NCBI GenBank assembly: GCA_951406725.2
Contig: OX597818.1
Coordinates: 111,972,001-112,036,000 of the forward strand
Reading direction: 5' to 3'
Length of the DNA stretch: 64,000 bases
Origin: Octopus vulgaris
Taxonomy: Eukaryota
Position numbers and translations under genes: made by a program. Every line of letters starts with the position of its first letter. The stretch's first letter is position 1. Below, in pieces: positions 9,121 through 63,910 of the stretch. The notes beneath the pieces were generated by a model. It ran no database searches. It was given only the letters and a program-made list of their open reading frames with translations, and was not told the origin of the DNA.

Positions 9121-9158
9121 TCTTTTACGTTTCGAGCCTACGCTCTTCAACAGAAATA
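9121..9158 (-). ncRNA. Minimal type-I hammerhead-like motif (U at core position 6)
   Basis: UUU-CUGUUGA-A-GAGC(GUAG)GCUC-GAAA-CG-UA-AAA. Confidence 0.6.
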
Positions 9159-9989
9159 TACACAGAAAAGAAACACGGAGAGAAACAAGGAGAGAAAAAA
9201 AATGCGTGCAGAAGCTAGCGATTCAACATGGCGATTCTGGCCAGAAGTCAGAGACCAAACGTGAGACGCAAGAGCGAAAATAGGGGAGATAACAGGGTCA
9301 AATGACTTCGCCCCAACATAAGGGTGCGTGTGTGTTTGAGAGAGTATGTGGTGCGTATGAAAGGTCTGGACGTGTGTATGTATGTATGTATGATGTGATG
9401 TGTAATGTCGTATGGTGTAGTGTAGAGAGGGGAGATGGGGGGTGAGTGAGAGAGATGAGGGGAGAGGGGAAGAGGGGTGGAGAAGGAGAGAGGAGGGAGG
9501 AGGGAGAAGAGGAAAGGTGAGAGTGAGGGGGTGGGTGGGTGAGAGGGTGAGAAGGAAAGAAGGAGGGGTAAGGGTGAGATGAGATGAGGGGTGTGAGAAG
9601 GGGGGAGAAAGAAAGAGGAGAAGAGGGGGGAGGAGGGGGAAGGGGAGAAGGAAGGAGAGGAGAAGGAAGGAGAGAGGAAGGGGAGAAGGAAGGGGAGAAG
9701 GAAGGGGAGAAGGAAGGAGAGGAGAAGAGGAGGAGAGAGGAAGGAGAGAAGGAAGGAGAGGAGAAGAGGAGGGGGATGGGAAAGGAGGGGAGAGGAGGAA
9801 GGGGAGGATAGGGGGAGAGAGAAGGGGAGTGAGGGAGCAGAGAGAAACAGAGAAGGGGAAGAGGGAAGAAGAAAGAGGAAAGAAGAGGAGGGAAGAAGGG
9901 AAGAGGAGGGAAAGAGAGTAGGGGTGAAAAGATGAAGGACCGAAGAGAAGCAGGAGTCGGGGGGAGGTTAGATGAGGAGGGGGGGGGAG

Positions 9990-12700
9990 TTGAGACCAAA
10001 TGCGTAAAAGAGCGAAGAGAGAAGATTAATCTATGTTCACGGCGCAAACGGGAATCCGGATGGCCTCTGTGCAAGGACAAACCGAACACAGACAGGTGTT
10101 GCAAGGAGCGATCGGTGGAGCGGAAGTGGCGTGAGACCGGTGTGTCGTTAGCAAGGCGGATGTCACGGAGGTGTTCCGCGAACCGGTCAGCCAAGCGGCG
10201 TCCCGTTTGTCCGATGTACAGGGAATGGCAGAGAGAGCAAGAGATGCAATAGATGATATTACTGGAGGTGCAGGTGAAGGAGTTGATGATACGATAGGGT
10301 CGATGATGGGTGCCAGTGAGGAGGGTGGTGCTGGAGAGGTAAGGGAAAGTGTGGCAACGTGGGCTGGAGCAGGGGAACGAGCCAGTTTGGGAGGTAGGGT
10401 CAGGGAAGGAGCTGTGGACCAAAAGGTCTCGTAGGTTATGGGCTCGTTTGAAGGAGGGGAGGGGTCGGTTAGGGAAGAGGTGTGAAGTGGACGGGTCGGA
10501 CTGGAGATGGCGGAAAGCTCGAAGAATGGTGCGTTGGAGAGGTAGGGTCGTGGGGTGGTAAGTGAGGGGAAAAGGGAGGCGGGAGACTACAGGGCGGGTT
10601 CGGGAAGAGAGAGCAGATGCACGGTCTACGGAACGTGCTCTGACAAGGGCGGTGTAGATAGTGGTGAGGGGGTATCCACGTAGGATGAAGTGGCGAGCCA
10701 TGCGTTGAGACTGAGTCTCAAAGTCATGGTCGTCACTACAGAGCCTACGTAGACGGAGGAATTGGGAATAGGGGATGGAAAGCTTGGTGTGTTTTGGGTG
10801 GGAGGAAGAGAAGTTTAGGTATGAGTGTGAGTCTGTGTGTTTGAAGTGAATGGAGGTGGTAATAGTGGAGTGATGAATGCTGACCGAAATGTCGAGGAAG
10901 GAGACAGAGGTGTTGGAGATAGTGGAGGTGAAGTGGAGGGCTGGATGGAAGGATTGAACGAAAGAGAGGAAGGAATCTAGATGTTCACGGGAGAGTGAGG
11001 TGGCACCGATAATGTCGTCAATGTAACGACCGTATAGTTCGGGAGTGGGAGCAGTGAAATTAGAGAATATTTTGGCCTCAACATAGCCAACGAACAGGTT
11101 CGCATAGTTGGGACCCATTCGCGTTCCCATGGCCACTCCCGAGAACTGTTGGTAGAACTCGCCCGCGAACGAGAAGCAGTTAAGAGAAAGGACAAGTTCG
11201 GCCAGACGAATGAGTGTGGAAGTGTCGGGTTCGGGGTTGGGGCGGAGGTCGAGAAAGTGTTGAAGTGCCCGCAGTCCTTCGTGGTGAGGGATGACGGTAT
11301 AGATGACGGTATAAGTAAAGAAATAGGTATAGAGACTCTGGGTGTCCATTGTAAAAAGTATTTTCGAGGAGCCGGGAGGAAAGGAGAATGAGTTGAACAG
11401 CCGGAGAGCATGGTTGGTGTCGTGGATGTTGGAGGGAAGAGACGCCACTAGGGGGGCAAGGACACGGTCGAGGTATTTTGAGATGAGCTCCGTGGGGCAG
11501 TTGCAGGCGGAGACAATGGGGCGGCCAGGGTTGTTGGGTTTGTGGATTTTGGGGAGGAAGAAAATGGTGGGGGTGCGTGGGGTTCGCACAATTAGGTTGG
11601 ATGCGGTGTGGGGGAGACGGGAGGACGAGATGAGGTCGTGGACGGTAGAGGATACCGTCTGTTGGTAGCTACGTGTGGGATTAGAGGACAGAGGGGAGTA
11701 GAAGGAGGTGTCATTGAGTTGGCGGAGAGCCTCGGCCCTGTAGAGGTCCACGCGTCACACCACCACAGCTCCACCCTTGTCAGCCGGTTTAATGATAATG
11801 TCAGCGCGCCGTTGGAGGGAACGAAGAGCCGAGAGCTCGGCCGGGGAGATGTTGAGGCGGCGGTGGCGCCTGGAGAAGTTGATCCGCTCCAACGCACGCT
11901 GACAGGCGCCCGCGAAAAGATCAACCGCTAGGAACTGGCCGGGTGCAGGCGTCCACGGGGATGGTCGGCGGCCCAGGTCAGTGAAGCAGTCCTCATCGTT
12001 GGATGCGGATGGTGAGTCGCGGAAAAACGCACCCAACCGGACGCGGCGCACAAAGCTGTGGACATAAGCTCGCGTCTGGAATTCCTTACAGGATGGAGTG
12101 AGGGGGATGAAACGCAGACCTCTACCAAGGACGGAGCGTTCCGCCGCGGAGAGGGGAAGATCAGGGGGAATGGTAACAACAGACGGAAGTGGAGAAGGGG
12201 TGGGTGGAATAGAAGTACGAGGAGTGGATGGAATGGGAGTAAGAGTAGGAGGGGTGGTAGGGCTGGTGGAGGTCTGAGGGGGAGGGATTGGGGAGGTGTG
12301 TGTGGGGTTGTTGGGTGGGATAGTGGGGTTAGGTGTGGGTGGGTGGAGCATATCAGGAGGGGAGAAGGGTAGTGGAGGAGTTGGGGTGGTGGCGTCGGGT
12401 GTGGTGGAATAGAGGAGTGATTGGAGTTTACGAAGTTTGGTATTGGAAAGAAATTGATGGAAGAGGTGATTCAAATGGATAATGAAGCGTAGCGTGTGTG
12501 GAGCATGGAAAGGCGGCAGAGAGGAGAAAAATGTGGAAAAAAGCAGGAGGGAGGAGGCAGTCGATGGTATGTACTTTAGAGAGATTGGAGCGAATGGTGG
12601 CCCGCATCAGGCGGTAAGATGTGGTGCGGAGTATGGGTAAGATGGAAGAAGCCGATATTATGGAGATGTACTTGCATAGCGAGTGACTTGATCTGAGATC
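9990..12700 (-). pseudogene. PLE polyprotein: reverse transcriptase, Cys-rich linker and GIY-YIG endonuclease, disrupted
   Basis: Motifs KPADKGGAVVV, LPKIHK..PGRPIVS, TMDTQSLYT, GVAMGTRMGP, RYIDD, C-x4-C linker, IIYCISC..C..LYIGQT, RFAEH. In-frame TGA at 11755-11757, a small duplication (YTVIYTVIP), and frameshifts near 12480 and 10000. Confidence 0.9.
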
Positions 12701-61631: not shown

Positions 61632-61719
61632 TCTCTGAAGAGCAGAAGTATTGTCTATAAATCTTTATCAATATAGGATTCCATTATCTAGACAATACTT
61701 TTGCGAAACGATCGTAAGA
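61632..61719 (+). ncRNA. Type-I hammerhead ribozyme with canonical core and 16-bp stem II
   Basis: UCU-CUGAAGA-GCAGAAGUAUUGUCUA(31 nt)UAGACAAUACUUUUGC-GAAAC-GAUC-GUA-AGA. Confidence 0.8.
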
Positions 61720-63749
61720 TGCTTTAAAAACTTAATTTTAAACTATTAAATTTTAAACTGTCACATTTATCATTATTATATATTTATACTTATACATATT
61801 TACTTATATTTATATATATGTTTATATTTTTAATGCAATAATTATTCTACCTATATATATATATATATATATATCTTTCTGAAGAATTTTTCTGATGTTA
61901 ATTTGCTGATATTATTGTATTTCACAATATTATTATATATTATATATAATTGCTCGTATTAAATGTATAAATACTTTAATAGAATTAATACTTTGATACA
62001 AAAGAGCAGTCACTGTAAATTCAGTATATAATATCCTTATAGAATGTATTTAACTAAAGGTTTATATGTATGTATGTATTATGTATATATATATGTGTAT
62101 ATATATATATATATTTACTATATATATATATATATATATATATATATATATATTCAAGTATGTGTAAGCATATAGGTCAGTTGACCTGGAGGCCAATAAA
62201 CAAATACATAAAGAAGATATTTAGAAGTACTTACTACAAGATGTGGCAGCGAACTGGAATCTGTTGAGATTATATTTTATGAGTTACAATGGTGAAACCG
62301 AATCCAATGCAACAACACTGAATGTATATCCTGTTATTGAATAGGTAGGTACTGTGAATGTAAATGTGAACAGTTCATCGCAAGTATAGTAGTAAGCAGG
62401 AGAGTCGTCGCTGAAAACAATGATACGCAAAGTAATAGATTTCTTCGATTTTTAGCGCAATATCAAAAGTCAGTTTAGCTGACTTTGTGTCTGTCTTTAG
62501 GAATGCTCAAAAGACCACGTGCGTACAGTCATGTAAGATAATGAAAATTGCAATTATACGATATTCAAACATAAATGGCATGAAGCCACTGCCGAGGACA
62601 TACATCATTACATGGTTCAGTCGGAGCTGGATTAGGTAATTGATGGTCAGTTTGTGTTTGCTTGGATACAATATACAATTTAACGAGACGTTGGCTCGTC
62701 CGACTGCTTCATCTAAATCTCGTTACCATTAGAAACAATTTATCACAATTTATAGTATTTTTTTTCTTTTCGATATTTTGTATTATGGACAACGTCATAT
62801 GAAATGCAATTCCTTTTATTGGCTTAAGAAGTAAACCGTTAGTTAGCATCTCGATATATTAGAAAGTGCAGTGAAAAATTCTTCAAATCAACACACTGTT
62901 TCTTACAAATTAGAAGGCAAAACAAAAAAACCTCAAAACAACACGGGATGGTCACAGATAGAACGTCTTTGATCGTAGATTTGATAGGTTGAAACAACGA
63001 GAACAAAACAAAAGCCAACTTTATTTCAATTTTAGCATCCGACAGTCGATAGATCAAGTACCAGTTGCGTATATAAGCGTACATGTGTGTATACATTAGG
63101 ATTATACGTATATTTGTGAGTGGAAGGGTCTATATGATTCTGTGTACTTGTATATATGTATACTTGTATATATGTATAAGTAAGGTTATATGTGCATATA
63201 TGTATCTAAGATGAATCTATTCACCGTGAGACGGTAGTGAGAGGGACAAACGCTCACACACACACACACATATATATGTGTGTGTCTCTATATATGTATG
63301 TATGTATGTATGTATGTATGTATGTATGTGTGTGTGTGTGTGTGTGTGTGTGTGTGTGTGTGTGTATACAACCTTCAACAGAGTAACAGACATGTATGCA
63401 ACTTGAAAAGCCACATATCAGTACATAAACATACGTTTACCTGTCTATCTATACACATGTACACACACACACAGACACGATTACAGACTTACCTGAATAC
63501 TCACGTACATACATAAGAACATACGTACATACGTACATACATACATACTTACATACATACATATATGCGTATAGGCATGCACACATGCATGCGCATGTAC
63601 ATATATGCATACGCACATACATGTACACATACATACATATATACATACATACATACATACATAGATACATACTTACATACATATATACACACATACATAC
63701 ATAGACACACACACACATACATACGTACATATATATCATGAACGAACTG

Positions 63750-63910
63750 TTACTTTCTCAGATGCAGTATGGAATTTTGTCAGTGAAGAGGTCGCAGTCT
63801 CAAAGCGACGAAAATATTTTGACAAATTTAATTTAAATGATGAAATGAATCTAACGGTTTTTGTGTGGTTCTTAAACGGCTTATAAACACCTTCCACGCT
63901 GCAATTGTTT
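63750..63910 (+). mobile_element. Short HHR-bearing repeat ending in (TA)n; HHR-like motif at 63776-63826
   Basis: UUUGUCA-GUGAAGA-G-GUCGC..GCGAC-GAAA-AUAU-UU-UGACAAA; homolog of 12714-12870. Confidence 0.8.

Follow-up and report, generated by a model that had tools for sequence, protein, structure and literature searches.

Twelve motifs of the hammerhead ribozyme type (nine clear, three doubtful), spread over 11 insertion loci in a 64,000-nucleotide stretch of Octopus vulgaris DNA (contig OX597818.1, positions 111,972,001 to 112,036,000 of the forward strand, hereafter the window), are probably the leftover 3′ ends of Penelope-like elements (PLEs) and of elements that borrow PLE enzymes. Several repeat families carry such a motif 100-400 nt from their 3′ end, and the link to PLEs drawn by an initial annotation of this DNA holds, given a PLE open reading frame (ORF), inverted arms at four loci and the minimal-hammerhead features described below. 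One family, C, judged from its sequence, is probably an RNA polymerase III (Pol III) element resembling a short interspersed nuclear element (SINE) that would be mobilised in trans by a PLE protein. The tRNA-like head of this family, the one at 51755/51945, was missed by the initial annotation and is its most unusual part. Sites are named by the window position of their core start and strand.

The family C locus is built as follows:

51672 to 51940, minus strand: family C element, with a tRNA-like head, a middle, a damaged hammerhead (core 51793) and a tail of ~85 nt
51878 to 51940, minus strand: tRNA-like head with Pol III boxes A (51935) and B (51890), 45 nt apart
51941 to 52007, plus strand: inverted 5′-truncated arm of family C with an intact hammerhead at 51945-51990 (CUGAUGA, ACGU, U17), a strict match to our descriptor
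51587-51642 and 52016-52071, no strand: 56-bp exact direct repeat bracketing the insertion

The direct repeat is likely a target duplication. The damaged motif at 51793- keeps an exact core and 85% identity to 51950, with a 2-nt insertion in stem II and the 3′ strand of stem I lost. The element is ~270 nt long (under 700 bp) and carries its A/B-box head at a sharp 5′ end. Since copies begin sharply at this head, transcription by Pol III is likely. Its sense strand is also the only one among the 11 elements to lack a four-T run, and no other of the 11 combines A and B boxes with that absence. The head aligns to positions 8-63 of the Rfam tRNA model with 19 bits (E 0.3; gathering cut-off 29), ARAGORN called no tRNA gene, and the fold of the whole element is no better than that of shuffles (z -0.49).

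Contigs from 4 of the 24 listed runs, aligned at 80% likeness on 51400-52015, show how common this arrangement is. Family C is found in 17,120 contigs of the DNA run of organism A (X1) and 16,925 of that of organism E, where the unique flank has a depth of 15.4 and 18.4, respectively. The hammerhead has a summed depth of 2.0-2.7 million and the head one of 0.6-1.0 million; such a sum is no copy number, and it brackets the family loosely at ~3,000 to 190,000 copies. In X1, depth rises again over the head (0.58-0.67 million) from 0.40 million in the middle, and contigs from other loci bridge head and hammerhead. The majority letters give 40 rows of difference (the four weakest left out), of which a single one, at 51970 in loop II, affects the 51950 motif; they restore stem II of the 51793 copy, and two rows give a canonical A box. 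The majority of contigs keep the core and stem II, meaning that the family consensus conserves core and stems in family C, one of about seven families.

Loose ends at 51938 (245 in X1, and 233, 36 and 33 in the others) have 11 letters in common and then diverge in all four runs, indicating that family C starts at the 5′ edge of the head. In other copies, loose ends at 51938-51940 reveal a short leader that opens with the reverse complement (five bases) of the tRNA-like 5′ end, making a fixed mini fold-back. Further loose ends at 51707 (148 and 92) fit the optional 30-40 nt tail of PLEs. Among the 15 joints listed of 94, six link family C to its inverted copy at other breakpoints, so inverted arms occur at other loci, and none joins tail to head. 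One organism E contig spans flank and tail (51400-51710, 27 differences), which dates this insertion to before A and E split. Across the cleavage site, depth is level at ~2.4 million on each side (X1, both copies summed) and no pile-up of ends is listed there among the contigs, hinting that integrated copies came from uncut (or rejoined) RNA, although contigs are weak evidence on this point. Two runs guessed to be RNA contain family C contigs (3,390 and 2,303) but not the unique flank, which does not amount to a discrete transcript, and no RNA run is listed as containing 50260-52600.

All 12 sites of the initial annotation point to a hammerhead-like motif. They were assessed using a strict type-I descriptor (Watson-Crick N3-N8 pair, exact core, 0-1 extra base after A9, GAAA, H17, stem II of at least 4 bp, exactly palindromic stem III and stem I of at least 3 bp), with 40 local dinucleotide shuffles of the window as the chance control. 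Four matches (41382-, 49791+, 51950+ and 61635+) were found against a shuffle mean of 0.075 (maximum 1), and an earlier, similar descriptor had given four against 0.03 in 30 shuffles; the excess over chance therefore holds within the window. Allowing one core mismatch gave eight matches against 0.925 (maximum 3), seven of them listed sites, with 9153-, 56633+ and 63783+ gained; the unlisted match, 37368+, looks like noise. The loosest setting yielded 11 matches against 5.4 and gained no further listed site, and the relaxed extras 25624-, 37368+, 45423+ and 56278- were rejected as lying within shuffle noise. Two more motifs, 12842- and 51793-, fall outside the descriptor yet are damaged homologues of clear ones, while none of the descriptors recovers 29145-, 42098- or 49585+, whose status as ribozymes is doubtful despite flanks resembling PLE ends. 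Hammerhead identity therefore stands for nine of the 12 (four intact, five damaged), the type-I core with stems I and II being exact in four, one core mismatch away in three and recognised by homology in two.

The minimal type-I architecture proposed by the initial annotation was borne out, and its tiny palindromic stem III is exact in 10 of the 12 motifs and broken in 42098- and 49585+. Stem I measures 3-7 bp and stem II 4-16 bp, G10.1-C11.1 is present in families A-F, and the extra base after A9 is found in families A, B, C and F and not in D and E. Read directly, the sequence of stem II is wholly different among families A to E with a constant G-C closure, which amounts to covariation at the level of architecture. 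Rfam gave no hammerhead among the best 150 of 362 weak matches in the window (mostly microsatellite-driven microRNAs) or among the four matches on 51560-52120. Pattern scans for families A and C returned no viral and no prokaryotic loci and three metagenome loci, which match over only 21-24 nt and were dismissed as chance.

Self-BLAST sorts the motifs into about seven families: A (9153, 56633 and a diverged 49791), B (12842, 63783), C (51793, 51950), D, E, F/F2, which have a tail motif in common, and G. Outside family C, their features are:

9123 to 9156, minus strand: minimal hammerhead, family A; CUGUUGA core (U at position 6), stem III ACGU, A17, one core mismatch
9024 to 9215, minus strand: family A 3′ end, resembling a pseudo-long terminal repeat (pLTR), ending in (TA)20 at 8984-9023
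56630 to 56663, plus strand: minimal hammerhead, family A solo end; CUGUAGA core (U6), ACGU, A17, one core mismatch
49788 to 49820, plus strand: intact minimal hammerhead, diverged family A relative; CUGACGA core, ACGU, U17, strict match
12655 to 12908, minus strand: family B 3′ end following a (TC)n tract, its tail ~60 nt longer than in the 63783 copy
12799 to 12850, minus strand: minimal hammerhead, family B; G3-C8 core variant, AAUAUU stem III, U17, one stem I mismatch
63776 to 63826, plus strand: minimal hammerhead, family B; G3.G8 mismatch, AAUAUU, U17, (TA)9 at 63910
41298 to 41387, minus strand: intact minimal hammerhead, family D; long stem II, stem III ACGUACGU, C17, strict match
41580 to 41930, plus strand: inverted 5′-truncated arms, family D; 100% identity over 194 nt and 98% over 107 nt
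61632 to 61719, plus strand: intact minimal hammerhead, family E; 16-bp stem II, stem III ACGAUCGU, A17, strict match
42066 to 42101, minus strand: doubtful hammerhead, family F; U3-A8 core, broken palindrome, G at position 17
49582 to 49623, plus strand: doubtful hammerhead, family F2; U3-A8 core, broken palindrome, poor stem II
49075 to 49273, minus strand: inverted arm, family F2, without core and stem II; ACCGGU intact, ends in (TA)7
29096 to 29150, minus strand: doubtful, decayed hammerhead, family G; exact CUGAUGA, G12 lost, weak stem II, AUCGAU palindrome

The family A end at 9024-9215 is 83% identical to 56600-56746 over 157 nt; the latter copy is flanked by (TA)13 and (CT)14(TA)14, and the relative at 49788-49820 is 73% identical to family A and has (TA)25 at 49922. 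The two family B copies, 12842- and 63783, are 90% identical over 148 nt. The family D element ends in (TA)n at 41001. Its inverted arms match the main copy at 100% and 98% identity, which makes the locus (40997-41930) a young insertion, and its intact GUC hammerhead is the motif best suited to a cleavage assay. Family E has degenerate TA from 61773 and (TA)11 at 61852, the family F tail ends in (TA)25 at 41928-41977, and family G ends in (TA)9 at 28829-28846 with an inverted arm at 29252-29300. The inverted paralogue of 49585+, at 49139-49075, retains ACCGGU. Cofolding predicted an intermolecular stem III for families D and E (8 bp for D), whereas alternative dimers outscored it for the ACGU types. 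Three motifs from different families, 49791+, 51950+ and 56633+, lie on the same strand within 7 kb and have the ACGU palindrome in common, making mixed dimers in one long transcript conceivable.

A coding PLE lies upstream of the family A motif at 9121(-):

9997 to 12655, minus strand: near full-length, 5′-truncated PLE ORF with DKG, reverse transcriptase (RT; YIDD), a decayed linker zinc finger and, at the C terminus, a GIY-YIG domain

The ORF matches RVT_1 and GIY-YIG, has two internal cysteines in the latter and is 54% identical to homologue P0004 over 725 aa, among 900 homologues. It lacks roughly the first 75 residues and is damaged by one in-frame stop (11755-11757) and likely frameshifts near both ends. 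The CX2-5CxxC linker finger, which has been linked to the (TA)n bias of Neptune and Nematis PLEs (PMC8557442), keeps two of three cysteines here and all three in P0004, P0006, P0147 and P0179. The ORF and the family A hammerhead are separated by 840 nt of pyrimidine-rich DNA, in which we saw neither a TA tract nor any other repeat boundary, and (TA)20 follows the hammerhead; from this single copy we infer that family A is probably the 3′ end of this element. No matching upstream pLTR accompanies this copy; family B was tried as its 5′ pLTR and rejected, having no sequence in common with family A. At 12655-12715 the extra tail of family B abuts the truncated 5′ end of the ORF with no TA tract between, and this junction is a composite of two PLE-type families. 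Scans for related loci with the PLE homologue returned nothing. The initial annotation overlooked this ORF and counted at least seven distinct non-coding families; about seven families stand, and they are not all non-coding, family A having a coding PLE directly upstream and thus probably ending an autonomous element. With a coding PLE found, most other families are more simply explained as 5′-truncated PLE ends than as separate non-coding systems. As for a location in PLE terminal repeats, 9153- lies downstream of the ORF in one copy, and for the others inverted arms and (TA)n ends would suggest it. Inverted 5′-truncated arms, a hallmark of PLE insertion (PMC8557442), lie upstream at four loci (C, D, F2 and G).

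The initial annotation also held that most motifs are followed by a (TA)n tract. Using tracts of at least 12 nt (59 in the window), and with two sites entered 1 and 10 nt off the core start, we found a tract within 300 nt downstream of seven of the 12 motifs and upstream of two. Against the window-wide background of 0.167 this is an excess (p 0.0013) which weakens to p 0.07 against the background of 0.339 in the TA-rich 40-64 kb part, where nine of the 12 motifs sit. Within 400 nt downstream the count is nine of 12 (p 7.5e-5 window-wide, 0.018 regional). These p values are guides only, as the sites are not independent. The 51793/51950 pair and 12842 have no tract within 600 nt, while the repeat ends directly at a TA tract in families A, D, F and G and in the 63783 copy of B. 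The link between (TA)n and the motifs is thus moderate.

Published PLE biology offers a mechanism that would produce such a landscape. The endonuclease would nick (TA)n, and the RT would copy the RNA from its 3′ end, usually stopping early, so that a short 3′ piece with the hammerhead accumulates; repeated 5′-truncated insertion at TA-rich targets would then have left many hammerhead-bearing ends. Minimal hammerheads of PLEs lie in terminal repeats, have no stem III alone and cleave weakly as dimers (PMC4209133, PMC6765202; dimer cleavage also in Lunse et al. 2017, as cited in PMC6765202), and most genomic minimal motifs are single and come from truncated PLEs (PMC4209133). Because a palindromic stem III forms only between two copies, cleavage would depend on a dimer and proceed slowly. 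Most copies in the window are decaying relics. Family C RNA, ~270 nt long, would be transcribed by Pol III, and its PLE-type 3′ half would be recognised in trans by a PLE protein.

Several observations weigh against this account. The tRNA match of the family C head lies below the Rfam gathering cut-off, a lack of four-T runs would arise by chance with a probability of 0.19-0.4, the locus lies outside any long (TA)n tract, and no PLE with the family C tail turned up. The majority letters come from family C alone, one of about seven families, and from contigs without raw reads, in which RNA ends are not visible. The tie between ORF and family A is a single copy with 840 nt of low-complexity DNA between, and no PLE coding remnant was found near any other motif with 229 related proteins. 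Finally, U6 in two of three family A copies and U17 in families B and C make their activity doubtful.

Other explanations account for parts of this evidence. The motifs could in principle all be chance matches in AT-rich DNA, as the 5.4 shuffle matches at the loosest setting and the three sites that fail every descriptor might suggest, but this is very improbable given the strict result, the recurrence of motifs in repeat families and a core kept in thousands of family C contigs; it is refuted for nine sites and remains for 29145-, 42098- and 49585+. For family C, a tRNA-SINE may have inserted once into the 3′ untranslated region of a PLE, leaving the head a passenger on truncated PLE ends with no Pol III role. 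Depth over hammerhead and tail is ~3-4 times that over the head, as expected of any 5′-truncated PLE, but the loose ends of the head diverge in all four runs with no upstream continuation, depth rises again over the head, and only family C pairs A and B boxes with a lack of four-T runs, so we regard this origin as unlikely.

Somewhat less likely again, family C would be a tRNA SINE dependent on a long interspersed nuclear element (LINE), with its hammerhead a captured, unused relic. Ohshima and Okada reportedly described three octopus tRNA SINE families in 1994, and family C may be one of them. LINE RT fragments in the window, U17 and the lack of a depth step at the cleavage site are in keeping with such an origin. 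On the other hand, core and stem II are unchanged in the majority of thousands of contigs, both the inverted arms and the optional 35-nt tail are traits of PLEs, and family C ends here in neither poly(A) nor a simple repeat. The families might instead be independent non-coding retrozymes replicating via self-cleaved circular RNAs, a reading that the non-coding families of the initial annotation could imply. Animal retrozymes have been proposed as PLE derivatives (bioRxiv 10.64898/2026.07.22.740005), and this origin would suit the absence of an ORF near six of the seven families. This we consider the least likely of the three, since no family forms a head-to-tail tandem in the window, the hammerheads are minimal rather than canonical, and the 15 of 94 family C joints include no tail-to-head joint. 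We favour PLE ends, with family C probably a Pol III-transcribed element that depends on PLE protein.

Compared with the minimal hammerheads of metazoan PLEs (PMC4209133), those of the window are alike in being type I, with a tiny palindromic stem III, an extra base after A9, G10.1-C11.1 and a short stem I, in forming many families per genome of mostly single motifs that include a U3-A8 variant, and in occurring as opposite-strand pairs 100-700 bp apart. They differ, it seems, in the G3-C8 and U6 cores and frequent U17, and also in the long stem II of families D and E, and in density, four intact per 64 kb being far above 2,000-9,000 per genome (PMC4209133). The canonical type-I form, with a 6-bp stem I, a 4-bp stem II and loop contacts, is not seen; the motifs are of the minimal type. 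The coding PLE resembles the endonuclease-bearing Neptune and Nematis elements (PMC8557442) in its DKG, RT, zinc-finger position in the linker and GIY-YIG with internal cysteines, as well as in the 3′ hammerhead, (TA)n end, inverted arms and optional tail, a likeness by motifs and not by tree; this copy differs in being 5′-truncated, broken and without a matching upstream pLTR.

Family C itself recalls the schistosome SINE-like retroposons Sm-alpha and Sj-alpha, short repeats in which a Pol III-type promoter is followed by a type-I hammerhead (PMC6765202, PMC8490949). Those form tandem arrays whose canonical hammerheads release monomers (PMC6765202, PMC8490949), whereas family C appears dispersed and has a minimal hammerhead with PLE-type inverted arms and tail. 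Like tRNA-derived SINEs (SINEBase, PMC3531059) it is under 700 bp, with an A/B-box head, a sharp 5′ end and very high copy, but its 3′ half is PLE-like with a ribozyme motif, not LINE-derived, and ends here without a simple repeat; with such a tail and ends it would work like a SINE but is not filed as one of the SINEBase type. The TRIMp3 elements Helenus, Ajax and Cassandra also join a Pol III promoter derived from a small RNA to the end of a non-LINE retroelement, theirs depending on LTR retrotransposons (PMC10886601), and family C would be the PLE counterpart. The precedents of Sm-alpha, PLE-derived retrozymes and TRIMp3 narrow what is new in family C.

The window as a whole is rich in repeats, 128 rows of tandem repeats among them. 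A further repeat family, headed by a tRNA-like stretch with A and B boxes and free of hammerheads, lies at 33811-34125 (+), with related pieces at 23333-23472 and 42629-42771. LINE-type RT fragments are found at 16666-17571 (-), 60687-61316 (-) and 2842-3213 (+), the piece at 60.7-61.3 kb being 94% identical to a protein match, and mariner transposase remnants at 29655-30275 (-) and 57942-58241 (+). Among named matches of a mariner fragment, identity is highest in Octopus bimaculoides (85% over 67%), with bee and mite proteins at up to 79-84%. One abundant interspersed family, often with an internal microsatellite and lacking a hammerhead, has at least nine copies:

4304-4425, 14371-14775, 32245-32616, 38131-38551 and 39203-39594: copies of the abundant family
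42974-43160, 46153-46515, 55046-55412 and 58561-58933: further copies of the abundant family

Another abundant short family, partly dimers, is found at 22583-23013, 26706-27236, 39604-39710, 47272-47695 and 55516-55656. A tandem repeat with a 28-bp unit and six copies lies at 51038-51208, and a 450-bp inverted repeat (59239-59686 and 60200-60617, 71% identity) is possibly a decayed DNA transposon.

Scaled to 2.25 Gb, which is the contig total of run X1 and not a genome size, four intact motifs per 64 kb correspond to ~140,000 (Poisson 95% 38,000-360,000) and 11 loci to ~390,000. The figure is a guess because the window is uneven (nine of 12 motifs in the last 23 kb), and the very large hammerhead load suggested by the initial annotation is plausible, resting on one uneven window. 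Lunse et al. are said to have found about 150,000 variants across genomes. Published counts include ~2,000-9,000 minimal motifs per genome (PMC4209133), counts above 6,000 for a coral and as high as 120,000 for axolotl (PMC7229834), and 235 Rfam matches in giant squid (PMC6962438), so the load would be high but probably not unique. The motif class is already known and the bulk of the finding is ordinary. The literature searched, which left out most subscription papers and Repbase reports, describes neither hammerheads in octopus repeats nor a tRNA SINE that depends on a PLE, and a 2026 repeat annotation of O. vulgaris lists many PLE and unclassified SINE families with ribozymes unmentioned in the text searched (PMC13282606).

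The fuller picture, in which family C is a Pol III SINE with a PLE partner, its tRNA-derived promoter fused to a PLE 3′ end with a conserved minimal hammerhead, and is present in tens of thousands of dispersed copies in a genome with ~100,000 intact hammerheads of many PLE families, some with unusual cores (G3-C8, U6), is one we put forward tentatively. If true, family C would extend the rule of SINE-LINE partnership to PLEs and would be a 270-nt natural substrate defining the smallest RNA that a PLE protein needs in trans. As its hammerhead is kept in thousands of copies even though cutting would sever promoter from tail, the family would allow a direct test of whether the PLE hammerhead serves in cleavage or as a recognition fold. 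PLEs would then also be the driver behind part of what octopus annotations list, in large share, as 'unclassified SINE' (PMC13282606).

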